Virus record (IMG/VR): IMGVR_UViG_2721755712_000001
DNA: 64,000 bases
DNA from: a virus
Taxonomy: Duplodnaviria; Heunggongvirae; Uroviricota; Caudoviricetes
Strand: one strand, 5' to 3'
The notes beneath the pieces are model-generated. The model made no database searches and had not been told where the DNA came from. It saw only the letters and a list, made by a program, of their open reading frames with translations. Of the stretch, positions 2,056-55,559 are shown one piece after another (position 1 is the first letter of the stretch; each line of letters starts with the position of its first letter). Made by a program: the position numbers and the translations under genes.

Positions 2056-3396
2056 TTAGGTAACGTCTAAGATTCGCTCAATGAAGCGCATTTGTTCGAG
2101 GTTTTGTTTAACGCGAATGCTGATCCCTCCCTGCTGGTTACGTGAACCAGCAAAGTAGAGACGAGCCTCTCCTTTCGCTTCTTCTTCTTCTGTTTTGTTG
2201 ATCGTTATTACCAGGTCAGCAATACGTACTTTTTCGATGTTGTCGGCAGCGTGCATCATTGTGGCAACTTCTGACGCGCCACCTTCACGGTTTGTTTGCG
2301 ATGCTGTGATACCAGCAACGTTGTGTTTGTCATAAAGAGCACGTAAGTCGGTATAGATACTACGTATGTTGGCGCGATCATCACGAAGGTCATAACTGGC
2401 ACGCATCAAATCTGCATAGTCGACAACAACCATGTCAGGCACCATGCCATTGGCTTTCATGCTGTTAAGCATACGATCCAGATCTGCCGGTGACATACTT
2501 CCTGACGGACGCTCAACAACCCACAAACTACCAATCCCCTTCGTGGCTCCCAACTCTGCCAACTTACGATGAACCTCATCGCGCCGTTCCACCAGCTTGG
2601 ACATTTCTGTCTCCGACAATCTTGCATCAAAACGGTCGGATAAAATGGTGGTGTGAACCTCCAGCGAGAGATACAGAACATTGTAGCCAGCAAGCGTTGC
2701 GTTTATGGAAAACTCACCCATTGCGGTCGATTTACCGGATTTAGCGAACCCCATGAAGAGCACCATTTCACGCTTCGCCCAGCCTTTTTGGTACAGCAAC
2801 CTATCGAGCAGAGGGAGTCCAGTTGTAATGCTGTTTGGCACATACTCCTCTGAAGCCTCATATTCACGCGCTTTCAATCGCTCACTTGCGGAGGTGTAGT
2901 AGTCATAGATTCCGGTCGCTTCGTTCGATCCAATCTGCTGAACCTTGGCCATGATTGCCATCGCCCCCTGAAAGTCGCCCTTCTCTTTCAGTTCAGCAGC
3001 CTTAATCAGAGCATCATCAAACGCTACGCTTTTTGCGAAGGTTGATACCTGGTCAACCATGTACGAGGTATCAGACAATTTTTCTGCAAGGATGCGCTTA
3101 AACGCAGCAACAACATCGGCGAATAGTTCCTCACGGATAGTCTTATCGCGTTTCGCACGCTTAAGCATATCCAGAATCGCAGATGAAGAGGGCGCGCTCT
3201 TGTACATACGGTAATAGCCCGAAACCATATTAACCAATATGGCATTGGCCGCATTGGCAAATTGGCTAGGTACAACCAGATCTCCAGCACGAGTAAGAAA
3301 CTCGTGATCACGACAAAAATAGGCCGTCAATCTGTTCTGAAAATCTTCATCAAACTCTTCGGACAGCCCGCGTCCTGTATGGCAAAGTTCGGTCAT
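2056..3396 (-). CDS. DnaB-like replicative DNA helicase
   Basis: ATG at 3394-3396; Walker A GFAKSGKST; RecA-like C-terminal helicase architecture typical of DnaB/T7 gp4 helicase domains. Confidence 0.8.
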   Translation of the reverse strand: MTELCHTGRGLSEEFDEDFQNRLTAYFCRDHEFLTRAGDLVVPSQFANAANAILVNMVSGYYRMYKSAPSSSAILDMLKRAKRDKTIREELFADVVAAFKRILAEKLSDTSYMVDQVSTFAKSVAFDDALIKAAELKEKGDFQGAMAIMAKVQQIGSNEATGIYDYYTSASERLKAREYEASEEYVPNSITTGLPLLDRLLYQKGWAKREMVLFMGFAKSGKSTAMGEFSINATLAGYNVLYLSLEVHTTILSDRFDARLSETEMSKLVERRDEVHRKLAELGATKGIGSLWVVERPSGSMSPADLDRMLNSMKANGMVPDMVVVDYADLMRASYDLRDDRANIRSIYTDLRALYDKHNVAGITASQTNREGGASEVATMMHAADNIEKVRIADLVITINKTEEEEAKGEARLYFAGSRNQQGGISIRVKQNLEQMRFIERILDVT

Positions 3397-3660
3397 GTGC
3401 TTTCCTTTGTTTTTTAAACAAATTGTTTTCTAGTATTAGTTAATTAGATAGGGGATCAATAAACCGCCGTGCTTCTTCCAGTTCTTCTGGAAAGTGGGCG
3501 GAAATAAGGCGCTCTGGAACGATTTCCATTAGCCAGATAGCGGAGAAAATTGCGCGTATGCGCTTGCTGCGGGGGATGGTGCGTAAACGCTCCAGAATCC
3601 ACTCAAAATAGCTTTCCTGAATCGGGTTGAACTGCATGTCTCCCATATGCTTAAAGCTAA

Positions 3661-5728
<2,068 letters not shown>

Positions 5729-6255
5729 CCGTCGTGCAGCTGCGGAAAGAACGGTGGAGATAAAGTAGTCGTATGAGCAGCAATAGCGGTCAGCAAACTG
5801 GCGTGCTTTCCATAGAGACGTTTTATTGGCAGTCGACAACTCCTGATAAGGCAGGCGTTTTAACCCGGTGGTGAACGGAGCTGTTTCAAAGTGTTCGCGA
5901 CCGTGCGTCAGCATGATATTTGAGTACTGACGTTTGTATGCCTCCGTAAAAAGACAGGTGGCCATGAGAGGATGCATGTCGCGGTAATCAAACCACTTCG
6001 TCTCGAAGAGTTCAGCCTCATCTTTACAGCGCGACAAACCAATGTTTTCAGCAACCCACTTGTCCATAACAGCGGTATTCCACTCTGTCATGAAGTCGTA
6101 CTGGTTGTTGTCGATGGTATCGAAAAAGATTTGGCTCATGTGGCTCACCTGGTAGGTAGTTACTTACTTATCACGATGAGCGGATGATAGCGACTGGTGG
6201 CAGTTTTTGGAAGTGGAAACGGAAGGGAGTTGTTCTGGTGGTGTCTTTTAAAAGA

Positions 6256-7241: not shown

Positions 7242-7601
7242 TTAACCTTTCTTCATCAACTCTCGTTTGATTTCATCGGTACGCATCGTGACATCGGCAG
7301 CGGTGATCGCCTCATTCAATTTCACGATGTCCTCGATTTCCTGCGGTGACTTCTCTGCCAGATGGAAAATGGCTGCTCGAATCACGTCAGAACGAGTGAA
7401 CTTCTCGAAGCGAGGGATGAACTTCATCATCTCCAGCAGTTCGAAGTATTCGTCCTCCAGTGACATTGTGCGGCTTTTAATTTTCTCTTTGCCACGAGTC
7501 GGGCGTCCCTGTGGTCTGACTGGTTGGCGCAAAGGAGTTGTGTTCTTAGCCGGTGCATCAGGCTCTTTGCGCTTTGCTAGGTCACCCATTTTCATGGACA
7601 T
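7242..7601 (-). CDS. small partition-associated protein (ParG/ParB-like centromere-binding candidate)
   Basis: 119 aa, basic N-terminus; start ATG overlaps parA stop (ATGA coupling); GGAGG RBS. Confidence 0.45.
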   Translation of the reverse strand: MSMKMGDLAKRKEPDAPAKNTTPLRQPVRPQGRPTRGKEKIKSRTMSLEDEYFELLEMMKFIPRFEKFTRSDVIRAAIFHLAEKSPQEIEDIVKLNEAITAADVTMRTDEIKRELMKKG

Positions 7602-8269
7602 TATTCTTCTTCCTCCAGACTCAACAGATAATCTACAAATTCTTCAAACTCGGCTTCCGCCTTTTTGTCGCGCTCGCTACCGGTCATTTCAAAGATAGAA
7701 CGACCAGACTCTTCCGCATCATCATAGACGTTGCGGTTATATAGATTGACTGGCGCAGACTCGATTCCAAACGTCTCAACAATCTCTTTAGCCGCCAGAA
7801 TGCGAGACACTTGTGATGGCAAAGCCGGGCACTGGTTCATGACCGCGCGGACCTTCACTTTATCGTTTACATTGCGAACATTGTCGATAATAGGATCGAT
7901 GTCACGTAAAGATTTCAAATCACGACGCTTAGGACGCAGCGGGATAATGATAACGTCAGCCATCAGCATCGCTTGTCGCTGAATTTCGGAGTCGAAGCCA
8001 CCAGCATCTACCACTACAAACTCAGCTCTACCCTGAAGCGATTTTAGGTGCTTAATGATGTCATCCTGAACGTATGCAAAAGGAATCAGCTCAAGGTCTT
8101 CGTTCTGTCGACGGTCTTCACACCAGCTCGTTGTCGTGCGCTGAATATCTATATCGGTAATATAAACCTTCTTCTTCTTTTTGACTTTCAGGCAAACGGC
8201 AATTTGCTGGGCAACGGTGGATTTGCCAGGCCCGCCCTTTGTGCCGCCAACCACAAAGATCTTGGTCAT
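7601..8269 (-). CDS. parA: ParA/ParF-type partition ATPase
   Basis: Deviant Walker A GGTKGGPGKST near N-terminus; 222 aa, size of type Ib ParA. Confidence 0.85.
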   Translation of the reverse strand: MTKIFVVGGTKGGPGKSTVAQQIAVCLKVKKKKKVYITDIDIQRTTTSWCEDRRQNEDLELIPFAYVQDDIIKHLKSLQGRAEFVVVDAGGFDSEIQRQAMLMADVIIIPLRPKRRDLKSLRDIDPIIDNVRNVNDKVKVRAVMNQCPALPSQVSRILAAKEIVETFGIESAPVNLYNRNVYDDAEESGRSIFEMTGSERDKKAEAEFEEFVDYLLSLEEEE

Positions 8270-8300
8270 TGGAGAGTTCCCTTTGCGTATATAATTATCG

Positions 8301-8320
8301 TCTGAAACAACTTGTTTTCT
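8301..8320 (-). promoter_or_regulatory. class I operator-like palindrome (AAACAACTTGTTTTCTT) upstream of parA, next to a GATAAT -10-like hexamer
   Basis: Member of a recurrent AACAA-N-TTGTT motif family; here the ATTATCG element lies on the other side of the core than at the other sites. Confidence 0.4.
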
Positions 8321-8448
8321 TATATGTGATATAGCCTAAATGCCTACGGCTGCGGTGTAAAGGTTAAATGGTAGGTTGTGATTAACAATTGGCAATCATA
8401 GCTTGTATTTGTCTGTTGAAAAAAGTAACAATGACCTCTATATTACAA

Positions 8449-8467
8449 GTACGGTGATATGCCGTAC
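8449..8467. promoter_or_regulatory. palindrome GTACGG-N7-CCGTAC upstream of the TA operon (candidate antitoxin operator)
   Basis: Perfect 6-bp arms ~80 bp upstream of the antitoxin start; TA promoters are commonly autoregulated via such palindromes. Confidence 0.3.
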
Positions 8468-8548
8468 ACAATTTGATAATGCACACGTAATGGGCTATAG
8501 CCTTTTAAAGTAATTTTTGAGTCGAAAACTCAGTTTGAACAGAGGAGA

Positions 8549-8857
8549 TTGATGGCCTTCCTACATCACGGCCATCAGGAGGAATACATGTCAGCACTAA
8601 AAAAGCAGCGCATCGATTTGAGATTAACCGATGACGATAAAAGCATCATCGAGGAAGCTGCCGCAATGTCTAACCAGAGCATTACTCAGTTTATGGTTAG
8701 CAGTGCATCTGAACGTGCCGTGAAAGTTATAGAGCAACACCGTAGACTAGTTCTGAATGAAGAATCCTGGAATCTGGTTATGGACGCTATAAGCAATCCT
8801 CCGGCACCGAACGACAAGCTGAAACGAGCTGCTGATCGTCTGAAAAGCATGGAGTAG
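8549..8857 (+). CDS. DUF1778-type (TacA/AtaR-like) antitoxin
   Basis: Small protein directly upstream of the GNAT toxin; alternative starts at 8552 (AGAGGAG RBS) or 8588 (AGGAGG RBS). Confidence 0.7.
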   Translation: MMAFLHHGHQEEYMSALKKQRIDLRLTDDDKSIIEEAAAMSNQSITQFMVSSASERAVKVIEQHRRLVLNEESWNLVMDAISNPPAPNDKLKRAADRLKSME

Positions 8858-37454: not shown

Positions 37455-37480
37455 AAAACACACAGAGCGCGTCCATGCGC
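37455..37480 (-). terminator. hairpin (AGAGCGC-ATGGAC-GCGCUCU then GUGUGUUUU) between promoter/operator region and terS start
   Basis: 7-bp GC-rich stem followed by a U-rich tract immediately upstream of the terS RBS (AGAGGGA); candidate attenuator/antitermination target. Confidence 0.4.
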
Positions 37481-37535
37481 TCTAAAACAACTTGTTTACT
37501 GAATCTGCTAACCAACTTGTTTTCTGGGGTGTTTA
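37481..37535 (-). promoter_or_regulatory. two adjacent class I operator-like palindromes upstream of terS
   Basis: AAAACAACTTGTTTAC and AACCAACTTGTTTTCTGG, followed by GGGGTGTTTAATTAG (minus strand CTAATTAAACACCCC), matching the class I leader consensus. Confidence 0.45.
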
Positions 37536-37561
37536 ATTAGGTCTGGGCATGTCTTATTAAG

Positions 37562-37640: not shown

Positions 37641-37907
37641 TTACATCACCAGTAACTTCGCTTTGGCTCGACCTAAAGTGGTTAACCCAAGAGTTCGGCG
37701 GTGATAGCGATTGTCACTGCGTTGGCGCGTATGCCCTTTCTCCACCAGCCCCTTTTTTATCAGAGCGCGAATTGAGAACTGGATACTTTGCTTGGTTGTC
37801 TTGTACGGCAAAACTTCAAGCAATTCGTCCAGATCAAGTAAATGACCTCGCTCATAACCGAGATTGAGCGTTTTGATGATGTCCTTTTGTTTATCGGTTA
37901 ACGTCAT
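37641..37907 (-). CDS. small winged-helix-like DNA-binding protein (putative regulator), last gene of the ParB/ATPase cassette
   Basis: 88 aa, basic C-terminus; AAGGA RBS 9 nt after the stop of the upstream gene. Confidence 0.4.
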   Translation of the reverse strand: MTLTDKQKDIIKTLNLGYERGHLLDLDELLEVLPYKTTKQSIQFSIRALIKKGLVEKGHTRQRSDNRYHRRTLGLTTLGRAKAKLLVM

Positions 37908-40814: not shown

Positions 40815-40833
40815 TTTATTGCTACAATCCACT

Positions 40834-40859
40834 AAGTAATCACTTACTTATTATAATAG
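40834..40859. promoter_or_regulatory. divergent promoter region: class II palindrome TAAGTAA-TCAC-TTACTTA plus TATAAT hexamers
   Basis: Between the ParB-like cassette (minus) and the SF2 helicase gene (plus); TATAAT readable on both strands at 40850-40857. Confidence 0.45.
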
Positions 40860-42458: not shown

Positions 42459-42737
42459 ATGAGCGAAAAGAAAACAACTTATTGCCAGGTGGCATTGTCT
42501 GATAAGGCCAATGAAAAACTTGGAAAATTCCAAATAAAACTCAAAGAGAAAAAAATCAAGATGTCTAAGGCTGAAGTTATCAATGCCATTCTGGAGACGA
42601 TGACTATGGCTGAATTTGACAAAGTCACATCTGCCGTTGGGGTTTCCGCTAAGACGCGTGAGAAAATCATGCGCATCTATGAAAACTCCAATATGACAAA
42701 AAAAGATCTAGAGGAAATACTGAGCAGGTTGCCGTAA
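42459..42737 (+). CDS. hypothetical protein
   Basis: 92 aa, ATG 3 nt after the helicase stop (operon); Lys-rich. Confidence 0.4.
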   Translation: MSEKKTTYCQVALSDKANEKLGKFQIKLKEKKIKMSKAEVINAILETMTMAEFDKVTSAVGVSAKTREKIMRIYENSNMTKKDLEEILSRLP

Positions 42738-44656: not shown

Positions 44657-45178
44657 ATGGTTAAAGACATCACCTACGGCATACCGGCTGAAGTCTGGCC
44701 GCGAGACTACGAACATGCTGAAAACATACTTATGTTCTGGCGGAAGAACAACATTCCTGTAAGAGTCACGCTTGAAGACGGTCAGGTGTTTTGCATGTAC
44801 GTTCAGGGGACAATGCCTTCCCGCAATAAGCTAGATTTATGCCCGCTTCCATATGATAAAGAAAATCGTATAAGACTCCCACTTGAGCGCATTAGCACAA
44901 TTGAATCAGGTGTAATCGATGGCATTGCTCGCGAGTTCAAAGGTAGGCTAACAATACATCCAGACTATGTTGACAATCAGCCATCACGCCGTGACTTTTT
45001 TGCGATATGTCGCAAGGCTTATCAAAACGACCAATCTATAAGGGTCTACATGACAGACGGTCGTGAAATAGAAGGGGTGTCAAGAGGCGTTGATGCTTGC
45101 CAGGTCACTCTTAAGTTAGAAGACGGCAGAAAAATACTTGTTTTCTTCGATTGGGTTGAACGAATCCTTCCATTTTAA
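44657..45178 (+). CDS. hypothetical protein (internal duplication of a ~45-aa segment)
   Basis: 173 aa; two related segments (VRVTLEDGQVFCMYVQG / VTLKLEDGRKILVFFDW). Confidence 0.4.
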   Translation: MVKDITYGIPAEVWPRDYEHAENILMFWRKNNIPVRVTLEDGQVFCMYVQGTMPSRNKLDLCPLPYDKENRIRLPLERISTIESGVIDGIAREFKGRLTIHPDYVDNQPSRRDFFAICRKAYQNDQSIRVYMTDGREIEGVSRGVDACQVTLKLEDGRKILVFFDWVERILPF

Positions 45179-46893: not shown

Positions 46894-47009
46894 CCGTTTC
46901 CCGAAAAAATCCTGGCCGTTTCCCGTCGGCTCATGAATACGTTCCTCGCCGTTTCTGAAAATTTCCCTGCGGCAGCTGGTTGCTATATAGAAAGGGCCGT
47001 TTCTGGCCC
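46894..47009. repeat. iteron-like direct repeat cluster A (CCGTTTCCCGAAAA-type units, ~4 copies)
   Basis: CCGTTTCCCGAAAAAATCC, CCGTTTCCCGTCGG, CCGTTTCTGAAAATTTCCC, CCGTTTCTGGCCC; same unit family as cluster B at 50311-50640. Confidence 0.6.
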
Positions 47010-47018
47010 TCTTCTCAG

Positions 47019-47501
47019 TTACACGCCATCAAGGATGTGGATGCGGTTGCTGGCGTATACATTCAGCATAAAGTTAGCGCAAAACAGTTTCCATGTATCA
47101 ACGCCAGCGGTATACGTAATGTTTTTGCATTTAATCGCATTGTTGGCGATCCGCATCCCCTGCGATACTGCTTCATCGTCGGAAAATTTGAACGACGATT
47201 GAGTTTTAATCCAGACAGAAATCTGCGTAGCGAACTCAATCAGCTTGGACTGGCAGAATCGCCCGGAGCGCACCGGAAAGACGAACGTTCCGAATCCAGA
47301 ATTTACCACATACGCTTTCTCAAATACCCGCGAGTAACGACGATTGCCAATGATGTCGCGTGCAATAATGCATTTTTCTTGTGCTGACAGTTCTACCGTC
47401 TCATTGTCGCGCCATGCACCAAGTACTCGTTTTTCAATGTCAGAGAACGTTACAGCGATATTGCCATGTGCGGGTGCGTTTACAGTAGCGATAAAATTCA
47501 T
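47019..47501 (-). CDS. hypothetical early protein
   Basis: 160 aa; class I promoter/operator upstream; iteron cluster A just downstream. Confidence 0.45.
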   Translation of the reverse strand: MNFIATVNAPAHGNIAVTFSDIEKRVLGAWRDNETVELSAQEKCIIARDIIGNRRYSRVFEKAYVVNSGFGTFVFPVRSGRFCQSKLIEFATQISVWIKTQSSFKFSDDEAVSQGMRIANNAIKCKNITYTAGVDTWKLFCANFMLNVYASNRIHILDGV

Positions 47502-47520
47502 GATTATTTCCTTATCGTAA

Positions 47521-47555
47521 ATAACAAATTGTTTTCTTGTTGGTGTTAATTATCG
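47521..47555 (-). promoter_or_regulatory. class I promoter/operator (minus strand CGATAAT-TAACACCAACAAGAAAACAATTTGTT)
   Basis: -10-like GATAAT with TTGACG 15 nt upstream, then a conserved leader ending in the AACAA-A-TTGTT palindrome. Confidence 0.5.
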
Positions 47556-47705
47556 TTGTACGAATAAGGCGTCAAAGTGGAAAGTTGCGGTAGCCGGACG
47601 AGAACAGGTGGGTTTGTCGGTTGCCTGGAGGTAAGAGGTTGGTGTTTTTAGCCTGCGGGAAACAGGATGGTCATTTAAGGCCACCAGCATTGGTGGCCTT
47701 AGTCT

Positions 47706-47993
47706 TTAGTGGAGCAGACCGATGTCGATGGTATCCCCTGAATCATCCACACGGATCATCAGCATGGCGAAGGCGTTTAGTGGATAGCTTGCGTGCCATT
47801 CAGGGAAGCGGTCATCTCGCATGAAGTCGGCAATGTCGTAAACGCAGCCCTCAAAGTGGAAGAATCGCGTGCTTACCTGCTCGTCATATTCCACATGATC
47901 CATTTCTTGCTGTTCTGTTTCCGGCAAGTCCAGCCATGATTCAAGGAATACATTTTGTGCTTTAGGGGTAATGGTGAAATCAGTCATGAGCAT
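47706..47993 (-). CDS. small acidic early protein (hypothetical; anti-defence/DNA-mimic candidate)
   Basis: ATG 47991-47993 with GAGGA RBS; 95 aa, strongly acidic; class I promoter upstream. Function is speculative. Confidence 0.45.
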   Translation of the reverse strand: MLMTDFTITPKAQNVFLESWLDLPETEQQEMDHVEYDEQVSTRFFHFEGCVYDIADFMRDDRFPEWHASYPLNAFAMLMIRVDDSGDTIDIGLLH

Positions 47994-48006
47994 ATCCTCA
48001 CTGCGT

Positions 48007-48040
48007 AAACATATTGTTTTCTTGTTGGTGTAATTATCGC
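48007..48040 (-). promoter_or_regulatory. class I promoter/operator (CGATAAT-TACACCAACAAGAAAACAATATGTTT)
   Basis: Same architecture as the 47521-47555 site. Confidence 0.5.
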
Positions 48041-48322
48041 AGTGTAGATAAGGCATAAAAGAAGTTAATACAGGCTGAATACACAAGAAAGGTTCTGGAA
48101 GTTGATAGCCAGGTTTCAAACTAACCTTCGGTTATTAAAAGTCATTTAAGACCACCAATGCTGGTGGCCTTAATAATTATCGCCCGATTACGCTAAGGAT
48201 CTTTTCCTCAACTGATTTGTTGTTGCGACTAAACTGCCTTGCGTATCTGATGACAGAAGAGGCGTTTTGCTTTCTGACCATCTCGGCTCTTTCCTTCAGG
48301 CGTTTCTTGAAATCGCCCATAT

Positions 48323-48697
48323 TTACCACCAGGCGCAGAAGGTCAGTCTGTTATTGTGAAAGTCGTGGTTCTTAATCAGATCTTCCACAAGCTCTTTCAA
48401 CTCCCCCACATCATGCCAGTAACCTTCATCGTACTCCTGACTGCCGAAGAAAAAACCTTCCCGGGTAGGCAAGTACTCTTCGCAATTACTTTCGTTTATG
48501 TGCATCAAATGAGCCTTCAGAAAACAAATGTCATTCATCGTTAATTCTAAAAGCTCACAATTTTCGACTTCACCTACGTTGCGCTCCATCCACCCAACGA
48601 GCGCATTGAACTTACGGAAGTAAGCAACCTGCTTTCTGGATGCCTCGTTATTCAGATCGTTTTTAGGCTGTGTCTCGATATAGATATCAAGTCCCAT
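48323..48697 (-). CDS. hypothetical early protein
   Basis: ATG 48695-48697 with AAGGAAA RBS; 124 aa; class I-like palindrome upstream at 48757-48773. Confidence 0.45.
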   Translation of the reverse strand: MGLDIYIETQPKNDLNNEASRKQVAYFRKFNALVGWMERNVGEVENCELLELTMNDICFLKAHLMHINESNCEEYLPTREGFFFGSQEYDEGYWHDVGELKELVEDLIKNHDFHNNRLTFCAWW

Positions 48698-48814
48698 GAT
48701 GGTTTCCTTATTAAGTTGCTTCAGTGAAATCATTTTCACAAATCAGATAAGGCAGAAAACAAATTGTTATCGGGTATAAGAAAATGGCGCGGTTTACGCG
48801 CCATTTAAAGAGGA

Positions 48815-49210
48815 TTAAGCGAATACGCTTTCAGGGATTAAGGTGTCGGCAGGAATGCCAGAGGTAATGCGCAGACCGTACTGGCCAATCCAGGTGGTGC
48901 TGGTGTTCAGGCTGGAGGCGAATACGGTGTTAACCATATTCATCATGGTTTCAAACACCTCTTCATCAACCTGGCGGAAGTAGTTCTCGATTTTCAGCAG
49001 CAGAGGGTCAGTTGCATCGAGAATGGACTGGTATTGAGTCGCGTACTCGCCGCCGGAGGCATCACCTTTACGCACGATCGTACTGGCCTGGACTTCGGCA
49101 CCAGTTTCGGTGTTGTACGTAACAACGGTGATTTTTGCCACATTCTTACCTTCGGCGGTTTCAGAGGCATAGTAAACATCAACTGTCAGTTTTTCGCGTT
49201 TAACGGTCAT
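48815..49210 (-). CDS. hypothetical protein
   Basis: ATG 49208-49210 with GGAGAG RBS; 131 aa; class II motif upstream at 49253-49269. Confidence 0.45.
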   Translation of the reverse strand: MTVKREKLTVDVYYASETAEGKNVAKITVVTYNTETGAEVQASTIVRKGDASGGEYATQYQSILDATDPLLLKIENYFRQVDEEVFETMMNMVNTVFASSLNTSTTWIGQYGLRITSGIPADTLIPESVFA

Positions 49211-49336
49211 TTCACTCTCCGTAGTGTATTGGTTATTTTTATATTCTATGATCGTAAGTATGTACTTACAATACAAAAAAGCCCCGTAAGGATGGCGGGG
49301 CTGTCGTACTGTCGACTAATTACCACTTGCACATTA

Positions 49337-49648
49337 TCAGGCTATTGCCATCACTGATGCTCTCTGAATTTCTTGCTGGGCCACGCGGTTAACTTCCATC
49401 AAGGCCAGTTCGAGCTGATGTTCCGGCCACATTCTTTGAAATGCCACCCATCCTTTTCCACGCTGGCGACGAACATTCATTACATAACGAGTAAAGGTGT
49501 TTTTATCGAAAGACACCGCTGTTTCACGGAACAGACGAATAGAAGTTCCATTGGCAACGATGTCTAGCAAAGTTAATTGAGCAACCAGTGCAGGCTTCTC
49601 TTTTCTCTTCTGGTCTTTGTCCAGACCAAGAACCAATGATTTTTTCAT
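49337..49648 (-). CDS. hypothetical early protein
   Basis: ATG 49646-49648 with GGAG RBS; 103 aa; class I palindrome AACAACTTGTTTTC at 49661-49674. Confidence 0.4.
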   Translation of the reverse strand: MKKSLVLGLDKDQKRKEKPALVAQLTLLDIVANGTSIRLFRETAVSFDKNTFTRYVMNVRRQRGKGWVAFQRMWPEHQLELALMEVNRVAQQEIQRASVMAIA

Positions 49649-49801
49649 CACAACTCCGTAAACAACTTGTTTTCTCAATGGCGTAAATAATACCAGTAAG
49701 AAAACGGCTACAAAGCATAATGATCAGGTGCATGATCGATATGCAGGTTCCTCCCAGCGGCTATAGAGAAATTAAGCCAGCAATGCTGGCTTTGGTTGGG
49801 A

Positions 49802-50131
49802 TTACGCGAATACCTCAAGAAACTCCTGAACGTCCCAATGCTGGACGAGGTGAAGATAGACCTTAGAAATCACGTCATTTTCGCTATCGCATGTGAAGTA
49901 GTACTTCTGGCTGCGGTTGTATGTGTCCACACAAAATTCGCTCATATCCATAAAGTCAGCATCTTCACCCATGTCGCAAATCATCAAAGCAGGTGCGTCA
50001 TCACGAGTCATCAGCTCAAGCACCCACCGCGAATTGATCAGAGTGGAAGACCAACCTTCTAACTCATAAAACTGATCAAACTCTTTTTGAGTTAATTTCT
50101 TGATTTGGTTGATGTCGATATTTGCAAACAT
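49802..50131 (-). CDS. small acidic early protein (hypothetical; anti-defence candidate)
   Basis: ATG 50129-50131 with AAGGA RBS; 109 aa acidic; class I promoter/operator at 50144-50177 (the track's upstream ATG lies inside the operator). Confidence 0.45.
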   Translation of the reverse strand: MFANIDINQIKKLTQKEFDQFYELEGWSSTLINSRWVLELMTRDDAPALMICDMGEDADFMDMSEFCVDTYNRSQKYYFTCDSENDVISKVYLHLVQHWDVQEFLEVFA

Positions 50132-50310
50132 AAAGCAATCCTTAAACAACATGTTTTCTTGATGGTGTTATTATCGCAATAACGCACAGGCGAAAAAGGA
50201 TTTTATTCCGGTGAATGTGGTTTTGGCAGTGAGTTTTCAGGTTCAGTACCGAGTACACTTTTTACATTATTCTGATTTAGTGGCCGAAAGTGGCTGGTGG
50301 GCAGAATAAT

Positions 50311-50640
50311 CCTCTCCCCGAAAACCTACTGAAATCGATTGTGACCCGTTGGCTGTCTGGCACAATTACGCTGTAGCTGGGCATTCAGAGGGAATCCAGC
50401 GGTAAGCAAGTCCGCCTACGTGAGCGCCTCTCTTCTTCCCGCACATTACAGGTGGGTAGCCGCAACTCTCCCTCTCGCTATACCGGTACGCCACCGTTCC
50501 TGAACCGGCATCGAGCCTTCTCCCGAAATCCACACAGGCAACTCGACCGTTTCCCTGAAAACCTCCAGCCGTTCCCCGAAGGCAACCCAGCCGTTTCTGT
50601 AGCGGGATGCAGCCTTTTCCCTGTATGGACCGAAGGCTGA
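50311..50640. repeat. iteron-like direct repeat cluster B (~7 degenerate 22-bp units, consensus CCGTTTCCC-GAAAA...CAGC)
   Basis: e.g. CGTTTCCCTGAAAACCTCCAGC / CGTTCCCCGAAGGCAACCCAGC / CGTTTCTGTAGCGGGATGCAGC in register at 22-bp spacing; non-coding (track ORFs here are low-complexity artefacts). Confidence 0.6.
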
Positions 50641-50779
50641 CCGTAGGGGTGTTACGGGGGATAAAATCAGGAGTTGAATAAATACGAAAAAGGAGGCGAC
50701 ACCCCTCCTTCCCTCTCCACTTATACATACCTGGCTTCTTCGCTATACATGTTGTGTTTTCTTCGTGTTTTATCTGTCT

Positions 50780-51570
50780 CAACCTCTCTATAGGCGTTAA
50801 TGCTCACTCCTTCCAGAACGTTCTATACGGCGACTATTTCTGTTGGTGAATTGGGTGTGTTGTTTTCTCTGTCGGTGTATGTGGTTTCGTTAGTTTTGCG
50901 GTGATTCTTCTATGGGGTGTTCTCGTCGTTTTGGTGATTGTTCTTCTCCGTGTATGGAGTAATGGCAGGTGGGCGATTGCTTTCGTTATTGTGTTTGAGT
51001 TGTTTGTCTGGAGTGTGTGAAAGGCTTTTGTAGTTATTCGTGTATTGGGTAATGGCGTTTCCCGTGATTGTTACGCTTCGTGTCTTTTGGGATTGAGAGA
51101 AACCTTGCGGTTACAGGCTTCGTTGGGGTTTCAGCGGTTCAGGTGTTTCTTCGCTGTTTGGGTAATGGCGTGTCGTGGGTATCGCGCGTATGAATGTTTT
51201 CGGATTGCCTGTGAAAGTTAGGTTGGTTGTCCGGTAGCCTGAGAAGAAGAGGTGGGTCTTTTCGGTAGCCTGCCATAAAGAGGTTGGTTGTTATGGGGAA
51301 TGGCATATGTGTTATTTAGTTGTTTTGTTATAGCTGAAAATAAGTTGTTTATATAGTTATGTAACGCAATGGGAGTGATTTTGAGCGTGTGTTTTTGTTG
51401 GTAGTGTGTTGGGTCGTCTGTGGTGAAAATTGGACGCTGTGGCGCTGTCTGCTGCGTAGAATTACGGGTATAAGAAGTGATGTGTGAATACGTCAATTTT
51501 TTAGACCAAATCGGGTGAAAGCGTTGACGTTTCGTTGATCTGTTATTTAGTTGTTTTCTTATTGGTATAA
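50780..51570. repeat. GT-skewed non-coding tract (~800 bp) with several degenerate direct-repeat families
   Basis: Plus strand almost only G/T; repeated GGGTAATGGCG-type units (50951, 51041, 51150, 51290), CGGTAGCCTG x2 (51230-51275), TGTTATTTAGTTGTTTT x2 (51311, 51541); no credible ORF. Confidence 0.6.
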
Positions 51571-51703
51571 ACAACGTTAACCTATTGATATTTAAAGGTG
51601 TGATTGCAGGTATGGAAGAAGAGTAGTGGCGATCAACGGATTCTTATAGAAAAGAATCAAATTGTGACCGCCATTATCAACTGATTGATTAAGCTAATTA
51701 CAC

Positions 51704-52894
51704 TCAAACATCCCCGTTCTTAATCCACTGCCTGACTTGCTCGTCTTGTGCGACTTCTTTCTCATGTTTGGCAATATACAAGTCTGGCAATAGGGGTGGA
51801 GCGAATTCAGGCTCTGTCGCACGCCACTTTTCATATGCGTCACGCATGGATTTCTCAACATTCCAATGCTCCAACTCTTGGTATTCAATCGGCCAGTTAT
51901 CCTGCAATCTCTTCACTGCATTAGCCAGGTCGTATCGGAAGTAAGGATTAAGACCAATGAAATTACCAGCCAGCATGTCATCAACCTCCTTCACTCTGGC
52001 AATCTTAGAAAACTTACCAATAGCAATGTTGAGGTCCCAATCTGACACGAACAACAAAAGTGCTGCAAATGCCAGAAACTTAGCTTCCCCGTATGCTCTG
52101 TCGCTAACCGTTTTTGTCTGAAACTCAATGTAATTGCCCATCACAAAACTAGTAAGCTTACAGGTCTTACTTATCTCGTCCTCCAAATGCGATGGATCGA
52201 GAATTGTGCGGTCACGATTATTGTTTATGTGTTCTAAGATTACAGCAATGTCTCTATGTGAGACTGAAATTTCACGCAATTGCTGGAGAGTCTTGATGTG
52301 AACTCTTAGCACCTCTTTGTCAATCGCACGCTTCCAAGAAAAACCAGGCACAGTAACCTGAATGGGCGCGAAAGGTAGAATATCAGGAGTTGTCCATGCT
52401 AGATATGCATCACGTAACCCACTAATATAATAAAGCCAGTCTAAATGCTCGCTTTCTAACCATATTTCAAATGTGGAATCCTTTCGCTTATTGAAGAACC
52501 ATTCCCTCATCTGCCACATTTTTTCTTGAGTAAATATCCCTTCCTGTATGCCGGCACAGACCAGCTTTCGTATTACCTGCGAATACTTTGTTCGATCTTT
52601 TGTGAATGAGACAAGGTGCTGCTTCACCTCAGATGTTAGTCTATCTCCATAGAAATCACATGATGGATGATGGCCTTGACCATCTTCACCGGTAAATCTG
52701 AAATGCGCCTTCTTGTGATAGCCACCATTCCTAGTGGCTCTAACGAACGAACCACCTCCAACTTTGCAAATGGGGCAGATGATATCGTCACGGGCAATAG
52801 CATGAACCGAGCTGTCATCTAAATTCTTTAGCGCCAAGTACTGCTCAGGATCGACTTCTTTTTGTAACGATTTTGAAAAAGCGGTATCAGTCAT
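51704..52894 (-). CDS. hypothetical protein with N-terminal Cys/His zinc-ribbon-like motif (candidate replication initiator or DNA-binding protein)
   Basis: CPICK...HHPSC cluster near N-terminus; ~396 aa from ATG 52892-52894 (GGAG RBS); directly adjacent to the iteron/GT-rich region. Function inferred from context only. Confidence 0.45.
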   Translation of the reverse strand: MTDTAFSKSLQKEVDPEQYLALKNLDDSSVHAIARDDIICPICKVGGGSFVRATRNGGYHKKAHFRFTGEDGQGHHPSCDFYGDRLTSEVKQHLVSFTKDRTKYSQVIRKLVCAGIQEGIFTQEKMWQMREWFFNKRKDSTFEIWLESEHLDWLYYISGLRDAYLAWTTPDILPFAPIQVTVPGFSWKRAIDKEVLRVHIKTLQQLREISVSHRDIAVILEHINNNRDRTILDPSHLEDEISKTCKLTSFVMGNYIEFQTKTVSDRAYGEAKFLAFAALLLFVSDWDLNIAIGKFSKIARVKEVDDMLAGNFIGLNPYFRYDLANAVKRLQDNWPIEYQELEHWNVEKSMRDAYEKWRATEPEFAPPLLPDLYIAKHEKEVAQDEQVRQWIKNGDV

Positions 52895-53064
52895 TCCAAG
52901 CTCCGAGCAAGGGGTTATTTGTTCAATTATCATTCGGAATTATTTACTGTCTCGCCCAGTTTCACGTCATTTTATTCCCTAGTCTAGCTTTTCTAGGGTA
53001 TACAGCTTATTACAAGCTCCTCATTATTAACTGTTTCCGTAACTCATTGATCCGCTTATACACT

Positions 53065-53364
53065 CTACCAACACCAGCACTCAAGCCCTTCAACGATCGG
53101 CGCACCACAATCAAAATGTACAGAGTCAAAGCCTACATCAAGTACTTTCTGAATGTTAGCAATCGCGCCTTCGGATATACCATATCGACGCAAGTCGTCT
53201 TTCCAGACATCATCCTGTAACCCGGCGTGGACAATACAACCGCCATCAATTTGTGAAACCCAATCCAGCTCATTGCTTGCGATCATGAATCGGCGAGCAT
53301 CTTCCTCTGATGTATGAGATGAACTGATCAATGCCACCTGGTAGGCTTGGGTAATGTTCAACAT
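53065..53364 (-). CDS. hypothetical protein (last element-type gene before the chromosomal junction)
   Basis: ATG 53362-53364 with GGAGTGG RBS; two class I palindromes upstream (53378-53392, 53427-53442). Confidence 0.4.
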   Translation of the reverse strand: MLNITQAYQVALISSSHTSEEDARRFMIASNELDWVSQIDGGCIVHAGLQDDVWKDDLRRYGISEGAIANIQKVLDVGFDSVHFDCGAPIVEGLECWCW

Positions 53365-53376
53365 TTCAACCACTCC

Positions 53377-53445
53377 GAAACAATTTGTTTTCTTATGTGG
53401 CTTATTATCTCAATCAACAAAAGGTAGAAAACAAATTGTTTTAGG
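53377..53445 (-). promoter_or_regulatory. tandem class I operator-like palindromes (GAAACAATTTGTTTTC and GAAAACAAATTGTTTT) with GAGATAAT -10-like element between
   Basis: Two copies of the AACAA-N-TTGTT dyad 35 bp apart upstream of gene 53065..53364. Confidence 0.5.
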
Positions 53446-53479
53446 GCTTGTGTAAATCAGGAGGGATTGTGTCTATATG

Positions 53480-53512
53480 AAAATGCCCAGCGTGTTGCCG
53501 GGCATTGCGAAC
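53480..53512 (-). terminator. metG terminator (stem-loop with one mismatch + T-run)
   Basis: Minus-strand ATGCCCGGCAACACGCTGGGCAT followed by TTTCAT, ~15 nt after the metG stop. Confidence 0.5.
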
Positions 53513-53525
53513 AGAGGTTGCTTAA

Positions 53526-55559
53526 TTACTTAACCTGGTGGCCAGGTTTAGCACCAGCATCCGGGCTTAACAGGAAGATATCTTTCCCGCCGGGGCCAGC
53601 AGCCATCACCATACCTTCGGAGATGCCGAAGCGCATCTTACGCGGAGCCAGGTTAGCCACCATAATGGTGTGACGACCAATCAGTGCCTGTGGGTCTGGA
53701 TAAGCAGAACGGATGCCTGAGAAGACATTGCGTTTTTCACCGCCGAGATCCAGCGTCAGGCGCAGCAGTTTGTCAGAACCTTCAACAAACTCTGCGTTTT
53801 CGATCAGTGCCACGCGCAGGTCAACTTTGGCAAAGTCGTCAAAGGTGATGGTTTCCTGAATCGGGTCGTCTGCCAGCGGGCCAGTAACTGGCGCGGCAGT
53901 AGCTTTCACTTCTTCTTTAGACGCTTCCACCAATGCTTCCACCTGTTTCATGTCGATACGGTTATACAGTGCTTTGAACGGATTCACTTTATGGCCCAGC
54001 AGCGGTTGCTGGATGCCATCCCAGGTCAGTTCCGTATTCAGGAATGCTTCCGCACGTTCTGTCAGTTTCGGCAGTACCGGTTTCAGGTAAGTCATCAGCA
54101 CGCGGAACAGGTTGATGCCCATTGAGCAAATCGCCTGCAGGTCAGCATCGCGACCTTCCTGTTTTGCGACTACCCAAGGAGCCTGCTCGTCGACATAGCG
54201 GTTAGCCAGGTCAGCCAGTGCCATGATTTCACGGATAGCTTTACCAAATTCGCGGCTTTCCCACGCTTCACCAATCACTTCAGCGGCATCAGTGAAGGTT
54301 TTGTACAACTGCGGGTCAGCCAGCTCGCTTGCCAGCACACCGTCAAAACGCTTATTGATAAAGCCAGCGTTACGGGACGCCAGGTTAACCACTTTGTTCA
54401 CGATATCGGCATTCACACGCTGAACGAAATCCTCCAGGTTGAGATCGATATCATCAATGCGCGAAGAGAGTTTCGCAGTGTAGTAGTAACGCAGGCTGTC
54501 AGCGTCAAAATGATTCAACCAGGTGCTGGCTTTAATAAAGGTGCCGCGAGACTTGGACATCTTCGCGCCGTTCACCGTCACATAGCCGTGAACAAACAGG
54601 TTGGTCGGCTTGCGGAAGTTGCTGCCTTCCAGCATGGCAGGCCAGAACAGGCTGTGGAAGTAAACGATATCTTTACCGATGAAGTGGTACAGCTCGGCGG
54701 TGGAGTCTTTCTTCCAGTATTCATCGAAGCTGGTAGTGTCGCCGCGCTTGTCGCACAGATTCTTGAAGGAACCCATGTAGCCAATCGGTGCGTCCAGCCA
54801 GACGTAGAAATATTTACCCGGCGCGTTCGGAATTTCAAAACCGAAGTAAGGTGCGTCGCGGGAGATATCCCACTGTTGCAGACCAGATTCAAACCACTCC
54901 TGCATTTTGTTTGCCACCTGCTCCTGCAACGCACCGCTGCGGGTCCATGCCTGCAACATTTCGCTGAAAGAGGGCAGATCAAAGAAGAAGTGTTCAGAAT
55001 CACGCATTACCGGGGTAGCACCAGAAACCACCGATTTCGGCTCGATCAGTTCAGTCGGGCTGTAGGTCGCGCCGCAAACTTCACAGTTATCGCCGTATTG
55101 ATCTGGCGCTTTACATTTCGGGCAGGTGCCTTTCACAAAACGATCCGGCAGGAACATGCCTTTTTCCGGGTCGTACAACTGAGAGATAGTGCGATTTTTA
55201 ATAAAACCGTTCTCTTTCAGGCGAGTATAGATAAGCTCAGACAACTGACGGTTCTCTTCGCTGTGCGTCGAGTGATAGTTGTCATAGCTGATGTTAAAGC
55301 CTGCGAAATCAGTCTGGTGTTCCTGACTCATTTCGCCAATCATCTGCTCCGGTGTGATACCAAGTTGCTGTGCTTTCAGCATGATCGGCGTACCGTGGGC
55401 ATCGTCGGCACAGATGAAATTAACCTCGTGGCCGCGCATTCGCTGGTAACGAACCCAGACATCAGCCTGGATGTGCTCCAGCATATGGCCGAGGTGGATT
55501 GAGCCGTTAGCGTACGGCAGCGCGCACGTCACCAGAATTTTCTTCGCGACTTGGGTCAT
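53526..55559 (-). CDS. metG: methionyl-tRNA synthetase
   Basis: 677 aa from ATG 55557-55559 ([29 protein letters not shown]...); HIGH-type and KMSKS motifs; matches Escherichia-type MetG as recalled. Confidence 0.97.

Follow-up and report, generated by a model that had tools for sequence, protein, structure and literature searches.

What is the function of a short palindrome that recurs in front of many genes of this phage? The window, by which we mean the whole stretch of 64,000 nucleotides analysed here, comes from an SSU5/pHCM2-type phage-plasmid with 97% identity to Escherichia phage Cyrano. The first-pass annotation had described, at ten sites, a GATAAT hexamer followed by a dyad, and had taken the combination for a regulon-wide operator or leader element; all ten sites are indeed present. 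The 13-base palindrome, AAACAAnTTGTTT, lies at a set spacing to the -10 box and heads about 12 transcription units of the element. Searching for AAACAAnTTGTTT/AAACAANTTGTTT with at most one mismatch found 12 sites in the window, compared with 0.49 ± 0.71 (maximum 3) in 200 shuffles, and GAAAACAANTTGTT with at most two mismatches gave 25 strand-hits, whereas dinucleotide shuffles averaged 3.7 ± 1.9 and stayed below 25 in all 100 runs. Eleven of the 12 dyad sites are non-coding, in a window that is 11% non-coding. The comparison with shuffled non-coding sequence proposed in the annotation, which predicts 0.08 such sites, thus came out clearly in favor of the motif. The result is a short, symmetric and conserved site that is over-represented at promoters across the replicon, as expected of dispersed repressor operators. 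The sites are as follows, with "cassette" marking those of the promoter type.

3410..3450, minus strand: dnaB cassette, exact dyad AAACAATTTGTTT, centre 3422, R1 profile score 27.1 bits (E 1.4e-06), ahead of the gene for the DnaB-like helicase (2056-3396); shared with Cyrano, with SSU5 and pJN2-26 matches upstream of dnaB
8299..8337, minus strand: parA cassette, centre 8311, serving parA (7601-8269) and the downstream 119-aa gene; orthologous parA-upstream sites in SSU5 (L004 30429-30465) and pJN2-26 (L008 21813-21849)
37505..37545, minus strand: cassette of terS and the virion operon, with AAACAAGTTGGTT as its first dyad (centre 37516); kept before terS in Cyrano, SSU5 and pJN2-26
37485..37497, minus strand: second dyad, also in the terS leader, centred at 37491 and 25 bp downstream from the other one
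47520..47557, minus strand: cassette of the 160-aa gene 47019-47501, GATAAT-TAACACCAACAAG-AAAACAATTTGTTA, centre 47528
48001..48042, minus strand: cassette of 47706-47987, TGCGATAAT...AAAACAATATGTTT, centre 48013 (36.9 bits)
48757..48769, minus strand: upstream dyad of the 48323-48700 promoter, centre 48763 (about -38), 26 nt upstream of TGTGAAAAT; the arrangement has an orthologous counterpart in a metagenomic relative
49653..49693, minus strand: cassette of 49337-49648, TGGTATTAT...AAAACAAGTTGTTTACGGAG, centre 49666
50138..50179, minus strand: cassette of 49802-50131, TGCGATAAT...AAAACATGTTGTTT, centre 50150 (36.0 bits)
53374..53413, minus strand: cassette of 53065-53364 (DUF5983), TGAGATAAT...AAAACAAATTGTTT, centre 53384
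53429..53441, minus strand: second, upstream dyad of the 53065-53364 promoter, centre 53435 (about -38), with GATAAT 26 nt downstream of it and the dyad at 53384 at a distance of 51 bp
51549..51576, minus strand: variant with promoter and AAGAAAACAA leader, right arm absent, upstream of 51218-51574 (15.2 bits, model positions 5-32); this type also occurs in the relative L022

The eight cassettes share the order (TGn)GATAAT, an A/C-rich start ACACCAACAAG and AAAACAAnTTGTTT, and stand ahead of the minus-strand genes dnaB, parA and terS and five small genes. In five of the eight, 20-21 nt separate the end of a -10-like hexamer from the dyad centre downstream, and four of these five canonical sites have the TG of an extended -10 box (TG at -15/-14). 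TG is combined with GATAAT, TATTAT or GAAAAT at 48013, 48763, 49666, 50150, 53384 and 53435, while the 47528 site has GATAAT without TG, and the boxes are weaker at dnaB, parA and terS (TAATTA or TATATC). A at -11, T at -7 and TGn before the hexamer are the features of a sigma-70 extended -10 promoter. A standard -35/-10 scan did not pick up the cassette promoters, as is expected of promoters of the extended -10 class. Relative to the predicted start, the dyad centre of the leader type lies at about +13. In the two upstream dyads (48763 and 53435), the hexamer begins exactly 26 nt past the dyad centre, which places the centre at about -38. Both registers overlap the region bound by RNA polymerase, as repressor operators do.

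These positions support the description of a regulon-wide, promoter-tied element that marks the starts of transcription units. The small genes are laid out as promoter, gene and terminator hairpin, with near-identical terminators. For 47706-47987, the ATG at 47987 has the better ribosome-binding site (GAGGA), and the longer ORF annotated in Cyrano would run across the promoter. Other parts of the annotation need adjustment. Its placement of the dyad in the 5' leader holds for most sites of the window, but not for 48757-48773 and 53427-53442, which lie 26 nt upstream of TGnGAAAAT or TGnGATAAT, nor for most sites of a divergent relative, where the dyad is at about -38. What was listed as one site at 37483-37523 contains the element twice, as a pair of dyads spaced by 25 bp. 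For the interval between dyad and start codon, 20-40 nt had been given; measured from dyad centre to ATG it is 18-27 nt at six sites, but reaches 42 nt at parA and 72 nt at terS. The label "early" is not supported, because the same element heads the terS virion operon and the parA partition operon, and in Cyrano also cobT and nrdB.

Most likely, the dyad is the binding site of a putative repressor that quiets replication and virion genes in the plasmid state. On balance, we favor the fuller reading that this is a family-specific promoter-operator cassette of SSU5-like phage-plasmids, bound by the repressor in the plasmid-prophage state. Host sigma-70 RNA polymerase would start at the extended -10 element TGnGATAAT, with no usable -35 box, and the transcript would open with an unstructured A/C-rich leader, ACACCAACAAGAAAACAA. 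The last six bases of this leader and nTTGTTT would together form the 13-bp palindrome, which would serve as a DNA operator and takes either of two fixed registers. In the register at about +13, the operator would lie inside the RNA polymerase footprint and could block open-complex formation or promoter escape, and in that at about -38 it would overlap the position of the would-be -35 box; certain promoters have dyads in both registers, 51 bp apart. A dimeric repressor encoded by the element is proposed to fill about 15-20 operators per genome in the plasmid-prophage state, and its occupancy would hold down replication, nucleotide-metabolism and virion units and many small accessory ones, in a mode likened to that of P1 C1 or RK2 KorA/KorB with their dispersed operators. 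We infer both that transcription starts at the cassettes and that the regulator represses rather than activates.

The likeness to P1 C1 lies in a plasmid prophage in which one repressor would serve scattered units, including replication functions, through more than 15 promoter-overlapping operators. C1 is a known protein with asymmetric 17-bp operators, whereas here the operator is a 13-bp palindrome in two registers and the repressor is putative. RK2 KorA/KorB also act through short palindromic operators over replication, partition and other operons, the KorB site being 6-1-6 as well; some RK2 operators are centred about -39/-40 from the start, and the regulators are linked to partition genes. 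The sequence differs from that of the RK2 sites, however, and the two ParB-N proteins of the phage element are silent in the lysogen; apart from ParB_N, no DNA-binding domain could be recognised in them. The window element also gives no sign of operators that act at a distance, as in RK2.

Does the dyad act as DNA or as RNA? The annotation had also considered a translational regulator, which would require an RNA target, but the hairpin that the dyad can form is weak (-0.4 to -0.7 kcal/mol), and shuffled sequences fold as well as the leaders do: seven of the eight have z between -0.4 and +1.0, and the z of -2.1 of the terS leader is due to a separate GC-rich hairpin. The leaders had no Rfam match at the gathering score. 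The dyad arms never vary, so covariation is not assessable. The -38 dyads are upstream of the predicted start and hence outside the predicted transcript. The two fixed registers, the lack of a stable hairpin and the lack of an Rfam match argue for a DNA operator on sigma-70 extended -10 promoters, and an operator of a dimeric DNA-binding regulator, as the annotation also proposed, is the best fit among these predictions.

The strongest rival is control at the RNA level through the following protein.

44657..45178, plus strand: FljA-family protein, 173 aa, full-length match to PF03614 (1e-80), with two tandem Sm/Hfq-like domains predicted

The shared leader, alone or together with the weak AAACA/UGUUU hairpin, would be the target of this protein, which would thereby repress translation or destabilise the mRNAs. 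Salmonella FljA represses via the fliC leader, and the window resembles that system in encoding a full-length homologue, in having most of its sites in mRNA leaders and in sharing the octamer CAAGTTGT, the core of the G-centred dyads, with the Salmonella fliC leader. In all, 834 plasmid records contain the homologue. Its range of hosts matches that of the motif and includes the non-flagellate Klebsiella and the non-motile Yersinia pestis, so host fliC is not its general target. In addition, the A-rich left part AAGAAAACAA is retained where the right arm is missing. However, the fliC leaders of Salmonella, Citrobacter and E. coli do not match the profile significantly, and a search of 32.6 kb around fliC with R1 found none in the leader and nothing below E ~1. 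Dyad spacing is fixed to the -10 box and not to the start codon or ribosome-binding site (18-72 nt from the ATG), many dyads lie upstream of the predicted start, and the dyad stays the same even where the identity of the FljA-like protein drops to 34%. RNA-level control is therefore unlikely as the explanation of the dyad, although such control could apply to the A-rich leader in addition to a DNA operator, and the FljA-family protein is possibly an RNA-level regulator of that leader. According to a citation in PMC2652032, FljA acts on the translation of fliC mRNA.

The expression of the motif-headed units was assessed in RNA-seq data from the LF82 lysogen, which carries Cyrano (PMC9928086, table S1; per-gene values only). 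Twelve of the 15 first genes behind the motif are at 5-13, compared with a background median of 9.8, a correlative observation; the exceptions are parA (50), dnaB (21) and CYRAN_111 (25). Low expression in the lysogen could reflect absent activation instead of repression, and the -38 site is also a classical activator position. A phage-encoded dimer might recruit RNA polymerase at the dyad and switch the units on in lytic growth. The missing -35 boxes, the silence of the motif units in the lysogen, the proximity of -38, where most pfekpn2511-2 dyads lie, to the positions of class II activators and the existence of lysogen-silent small winged-helix-like proteins (the 88-aa protein and CYRAN_37) agree with this. 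Most dyads of the window and its close relatives are at +13, however, a position from which one would not expect activation. The TGn extended -10 boxes come close to the consensus and ought to function without help, and the same site stands at parA, which the plasmid needs in lysogeny. We consider activation very unlikely and retain repression.

Conservation of the cassette follows this phage family. A profile built from the window and Cyrano sites, the latter heading at least 15 units, had its best matches in SSU5 and pJN2-26 (Klebsiella), upstream of orthologous genes and in sense orientation every time, and also detected sites before orthologous genes of the metagenomic relative. The cassette was found in 781 records of plasmids, among them Yersinia pestis pMT1, and in 13 of SSU5-group phages; a Xanthomonas phage gave one short, non-significant match (E 0.2). 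In 42 non-redundant sites there is hardly any variation in either arm, and the centre is unconstrained. The left-flank AG of AGAAAACAA is conserved like the arms, and its symmetric partner is absent. In an alignment of five orthologous upstream regions of 49337-49648, the cassette is the sole conserved island. The divergent Klebsiella plasmid pfekpn2511-2 keeps the dyad, with seven sites at -38 and two at +13, including a 51-bp pair (74844, 74895), while the candidate regulatory proteins compared share only 34-78% identity with those of the window. The one Pectobacterium relative examined, Drgb1, keeps promoter and leader and has no dyad. Because this relative and some sites lack the right arm, the conservation belongs partly to the promoter and leader and not to the operator.

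The dyad is invariant across elements of Escherichia, Salmonella, Klebsiella, Enterobacter, Citrobacter, Cronobacter and Yersinia while the element-encoded candidates diverge, and it is missing from the Pectobacterium relative. Both points would suit a conserved Enterobacteriaceae transcription factor or nucleoid protein that ties expression to host physiology. We know of no enterobacterial factor with this consensus, though, the IHF, KdgR, PhoP and LacI-family sites being different, and regard a host factor as highly improbable. Least probable of all is that no trans-acting factor exists and that a cassette with a functionless palindrome was duplicated before newly acquired small genes: many carriers are small accessory promoter-gene-terminator units with near-identical terminators, and leader-only variants exist, but the right arm is conserved like the -10 box across the 42 sites of three genomes (about 79-82% DNA identity where alignable) with divergent flanks, the dyad alone also occurs in a second exact register, and the core genes dnaB, parA, terS, cobT and nrdB carry it.

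We compared candidates for the putative repressor by fold, phyletic pattern and lysogen expression, and none of them combined all three. Two of them are as follows.

37641..37907, minus strand: protein of 88 aa with the sequence pattern of a winged helix, present in 797 plasmid records
7242..7601, minus strand: 119-aa protein after parA, with a ParG-type ribbon-helix-helix-like sequence pattern, found in 796 plasmid records

The 88-aa protein, the annotation's example of a regulator, is not favored: its expression in the LF82 lysogen does not exceed background (7.8, median 9.8), and its putative recognition helix is kept in the dyad-less Drgb1. The 119-aa protein resembles ParG-type ribbon-helix-helix proteins in sequence pattern, and searches of Pfam and PDB with it gave no match. 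Its own operon bears the dyad, and expression of the Cyrano counterpart in the lysogen stands at 89 (background 9.8); the protein is absent from Yersinia, including the pMT1 plasmids, which retain the motif. Omega of pSM19035 and ParG of TP228 are ribbon-helix-helix partition proteins that are also transcriptional repressors, and the 119-aa protein shares with them a small size, a position after a small ParA, and a promoter of its own bearing the site. It differs in that the region upstream of parA has no repeat array (a search of 8230-8600 for parC/parS-type centromere repeats found the single dyad), in that motif-bearing pMT1 lacks it, and in that its fold is assigned by pattern only.

A combined scheme, in which the ParG-like protein binds the palindrome as a global lytic repressor and the FljA-family protein binds the leader AAGAAAACAA, seems about as improbable as activation. 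If true, the former would couple the decision between lysis and the plasmid state to partition or copy number, the latter would set the translation of the same regulon via the common leader, and the FljA family would gain a function beyond flagellar phase variation, in hosts without flagella.

The other candidates for the dyad binder have weak points as well: the two ParB-like proteins are silent in the lysogen, the control region of the CYRAN_45 repressor has a different dyad and SSU5 lacks this repressor, and the FljA-like protein has no DNA-binding fold. Silence in the lysogen is also seen for CYRAN_37, which, like the 88-aa protein, is small and winged-helix-like.

All sites listed in the first-pass annotation were found in the window, where the dyad, a 13-bp AACAA-type inverted repeat, is far more frequent than in shuffled sequence: GAAAACAANTTGTT at up to two mismatches gave 25 strand-hits, against 3.7 ± 1.9 in shuffles, and AAACAANTTGTTT at up to one mismatch gave 12 sites, against 0.49 ± 0.71 expected. 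Eleven of these 12 are in non-coding DNA, which makes up 11% of the window and in which 0.08 sites were expected. Alignment on the minus strand revealed a cassette of about 40 nt common to eight sites, in the order (TGn)GATAAT, 1-2 bases, ACACCAACAAG and the dyad AAAACAAnTTGTTT, which frequently runs directly into the Shine-Dalgarno sequence. Variants consisting of the leader only occur in the window (51549-51576) and also in relatives. Translation of the orthologues of 47706-48056 and 49802-50152 from the starts annotated in Escherichia phage Cyrano, the closest relative, would run through the promoter-operator; more probable starts are the ATGs further downstream at 47987 and 50131, each preceded by a proper ribosome-binding site.

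The region 47000-54000 is 97.5% identical to Cyrano (the pLF82 phage-plasmid), whose annotation follows the typical SSU5 layout, and 79-97% identical to other SSU5-group phage-plasmids. Most of the lytic-programme genes in the window are on the minus strand. Several local features were noted in addition.

3861-5662, IS21-family insertion sequence, encoding IstA (3861-4883) and IstB (4880-5662)
3440-3808 and 5672-6148, the two parts into which this element divides a phrog_2500 gene (homologue of the Cyrano gene CYRAN_31), just upstream of the dnaB promoter site
51704-52933, 409-aa ORF (phrog_12525) without a Pfam match, in the position of CYRAN_102; here a gene has been locally replaced as compared with Cyrano
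50750-51450, long G+T-rich stretch without a convincing gene, in which TRF detected no tandem repeat and Rfam gave no match

The cassette is real and strongly conserved, and it defines the main regulon of the SSU5-like phage-plasmids. A profile built from the eight window sites and two Cyrano sites scored highest in SSU5 and Klebsiella phage pJN2-26, neither of which had been used for building it, and in both the matches without exception had the sense orientation and preceded orthologous genes, namely parA, dnaB, terS, cobT, nrdB, the DUF4942 methylase gene and many small genes. The label of early genes, which the first-pass annotation had attached to these units, was not supported. When the upstream regions of one orthologous gene from five elements were compared, they aligned only across the cassette. 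In an alignment of 42 non-redundant sites, whose fitting to the profile model favours similar sites, both arms were nearly invariant, the centre was free, the positions adjoining it were slightly less strict, and an AG in the left flank was conserved as well, without a symmetric partner. A 42-nt cassette query matched 14 phage records, 13 of them from the SSU5 group and the other a short match in Xanthomonas phage SU1 (E 0.2), together with 781 plasmid records, including Yersinia pestis pMT1, almost all of which are non-mobilizable replicons of 105-115 kb.

We then evaluated the position of the dyad relative to the promoter. At five canonical sites the dyad centre follows the end of the -10 hexamer at a distance of 20-21 nt, with TG at the extended -10 position in four of the five, which would place the centre near +13 if transcription starts about 7 nt after the hexamer. 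The dyads at 48763 and 53435 instead precede a TGnGAAAAT or TGnGATAAT box by exactly 26 nt, corresponding to a centre near -38 relative to the inferred start, and the earlier claim that the element always lies in the leader is therefore not supported. A single promoter has both the 53435 and the 53384 dyad, at a spacing of 51 bp, and the terS leader carries two dyads 25 bp apart. Since the dyad may be as near as 18 nt or as far as 72 nt from the start codon, the element is anchored to the promoter and not to the ribosome-binding site. A plain -35/-10 scan of the window picked up none of these cassette promoters because they lack a -35 box. The same scan detected terminator hairpins between the small genes, and each cassette therefore begins its own unit. 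Two of these hairpins, at 47675-47702 and 48146-48173, are near-identical (TTAAGGCCACCAGCATTGGTGGCCTTA) and follow neighbouring small genes, which are thus organized as promoter, gene and terminator.

The divergent Klebsiella plasmid pfekpn2511-2 retains the dyad sequence unchanged, with seven sites in the -38 register, two in the +13 register and one pair again 51 bp apart. In the distant SSU5-like Pectobacterium plasmid Drgb1, no dyad was found at up to one mismatch in 88 of 108 kb; ATAAT-TACATCAATAAGAAAA is still present there at four promoters, followed by a different sequence. Because leader-only variants exist in the window and its relatives, the Drgb1 leader occurs without the dyad, and the dyad is re-registered in pfekpn2511-2, the element consists of two layers, one comprising the promoter and the A-rich leader, and the other the palindrome, for which the end of the leader serves as left arm. 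Drgb1 also encodes its own Hfq homologue, adjoining dnaB (L026 10310-10531, L026 being the handle for this plasmid).

The dyad could act as a double-stranded DNA operator or as a structure in the leader RNA. The only structure that the palindrome can form is a 5-bp A-U-rich stem with a 3-nt loop (-0.4 to -0.7 kcal/mol), and seven of eight leaders fold no better than shuffles (z -0.4 to +1.0); the eighth, that of terS, reaches z -2.1 owing to another hairpin, GC-rich and situated after the dyads. Rfam gave no match anywhere in the window. This weak hairpin, the lack of an Rfam match and the two exact -10 registers, one of which precedes the inferred start, favour a DNA operator, in support of the operator reading of the first-pass annotation. 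The GC-rich terS hairpin, with a U-run behind it, lies at about 37455-37482, after the dyads and before the start of terS; it may act as an attenuator, in which case the virion operon would need antitermination. A centromere, replication iterons and a pac site were rejected, as the sites are single, dispersed and promoter-locked.

Published per-gene RNA-seq of Cyrano in an overnight culture of its lysogen LF82 (background median 9.8; PMC9928086, table S1) gave the following values for the first genes behind the motif.

Lysogen expression of the first genes behind the motif (PMC9928086)
At background: terS 7.1; cobT 7.8; CYRAN_58 5.7; nrdB 12.9
At background, continued: CYRAN_85 7.0; CYRAN_87 7.1; CYRAN_101 7.5; CYRAN_103 5.0
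At background, continued: CYRAN_105 12.8; CYRAN_106 12.2; CYRAN_108 5.7; CYRAN_110 6.7
Exceptions above background: parA 50; dnaB 21; CYRAN_111 25.5

Because near-consensus extended -10 promoters are silent in the lysogen, the motif units are, most simply, repressed there, a reading that is correlative.

None of the candidate binders fits on all counts. The 119-aa protein encoded after parA (7242-7601), which had no Pfam or PDB match, resembles ParG-type ribbon-helix-helix proteins in our own reading of its sequence. It has a dyad in its own operon and is expressed in the lysogen (89); its core is conserved wherever the dyad occurs and also in Drgb1, and its gene is missing from the Yersinia plasmids. 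CYRAN_37, outside the window, encodes a 71-aa winged-helix-like protein that is silent in the lysogen and was not detected in Drgb1. The 88-aa protein at 37641-37907, winged-helix by sequence pattern and proposed earlier as the regulator, occurs in 797 records and is 78% identical in pfekpn2511-2. That proposal was not supported, as the protein is at background in the lysogen (7.8) and its putative recognition helix is almost unchanged in the dyad-less Drgb1. CYRAN_117 (42459-42737; ribbon-helix-helix-like by pattern and expressed in the lysogen, 114) is an unlikely binder, since pfekpn2511-2 has the same dyad but a different version of the strand that is presumed to contact DNA. The two ParB-N proteins are silent in the lysogen and showed no recognisable DNA-binding domain beyond ParB-N. 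The Xre-type 'putative repressor' CYRAN_45 was rejected because its own divergent control region contains GGTAAGtgCTTACC and no AACAA dyad, and because SSU5, in which the motif is retained, has neither this protein nor the adjoining integrase. The conserved 103-aa protein h106 (49337-49648), encoded behind one of the best motif sites, was rejected as a helix-turn-helix regulator, its model having four long beta strands and a long C-terminal helix, with only weak structural matches, NTF2-like and PUR-alpha-like; it may bind single-stranded nucleic acid. The consensus sites of IHF, KdgR, PhoP, the LacI family, 434 and Fur are not known to fit the palindrome.

The FljA-like protein at 44657-45178 matches PF03614 over its full length (1e-80), a family with no sequence relative in the PDB. 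Its structural model contains two tandem Sm/Hfq-like domains and no helix-turn-helix, which rules it out as a binder of the DNA dyad and points to a binder of RNA or single strands. This agrees with the block of fliC mRNA translation by FljA, as cited in PMC2652032. A metagenomic relative, with 57% identity in its FljA-like protein, has the same cassette, and the protein is found in 834 plasmid records, including Klebsiella and Y. pestis elements. Since Klebsiella and Y. pestis lack functional flagella, the protein must have some other target. Phage-plasmids of such hosts carry it as a core gene, which raises the question of the role of a conserved FljA-family, Hfq-like protein where there is no flagellin gene. 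The Salmonella fliC leader contains the CAAGTTGT octamer, as confirmed from its sequence; a search of this leader with the motif profile gave no significant match, and with the octamer alone in common it is not supported as a homologous target. Regulation of the A-rich leader, and not of the dyad, is a possible function of the FljA-like protein.

In its logic the cassette resembles two known systems, P1 with its scattered C1 operators and RK2 with its KorA/KorB regulon, without membership in either being claimed; KorB sites share the 6-1-6 palindromic layout and also include a class at -39/-40. Neither the motif nor the transcriptional control of SSU5-type elements was found described in the literature searched, which omits most subscription journals. 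Clinical Enterobacteriaceae commonly carry phage-plasmids of the SSU5/pHCM2/pMT1 type (about 800 PLSDB records, including Y. pestis pMT1), and their switch between plasmid maintenance and lytic growth is, to our knowledge, essentially unstudied. With the motif, their transcription units can be mapped concretely and the regulator can be sought with a single short DNA probe carrying AGAAAACAAGTTGTTTA; it offers the first point of entry to the regulation of mobile elements of this widespread and clinically relevant family. Phage-plasmids have been reported in the literature to carry antibiotic-resistance genes.

The motif also sets the AACAA-dyad regulon apart from a GTAAG..CTTAC type of dyad, which probably makes up an operator class of its own under the Xre-type repressor. 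A dyad of this second type, GTAAGTAcaTACTTAC, lies at 49236-49262 inside a canonical TTGTAA-17-TAGAAT promoter upstream of 48815-49210(-), and the type was also noted at about 40833-40850. In Cyrano the related GGTAAGtgCTTACC separates CYRAN_45 from CYRAN_46, while the divergent parB-like/uvsW region contains TAAGTaatcACTTA.
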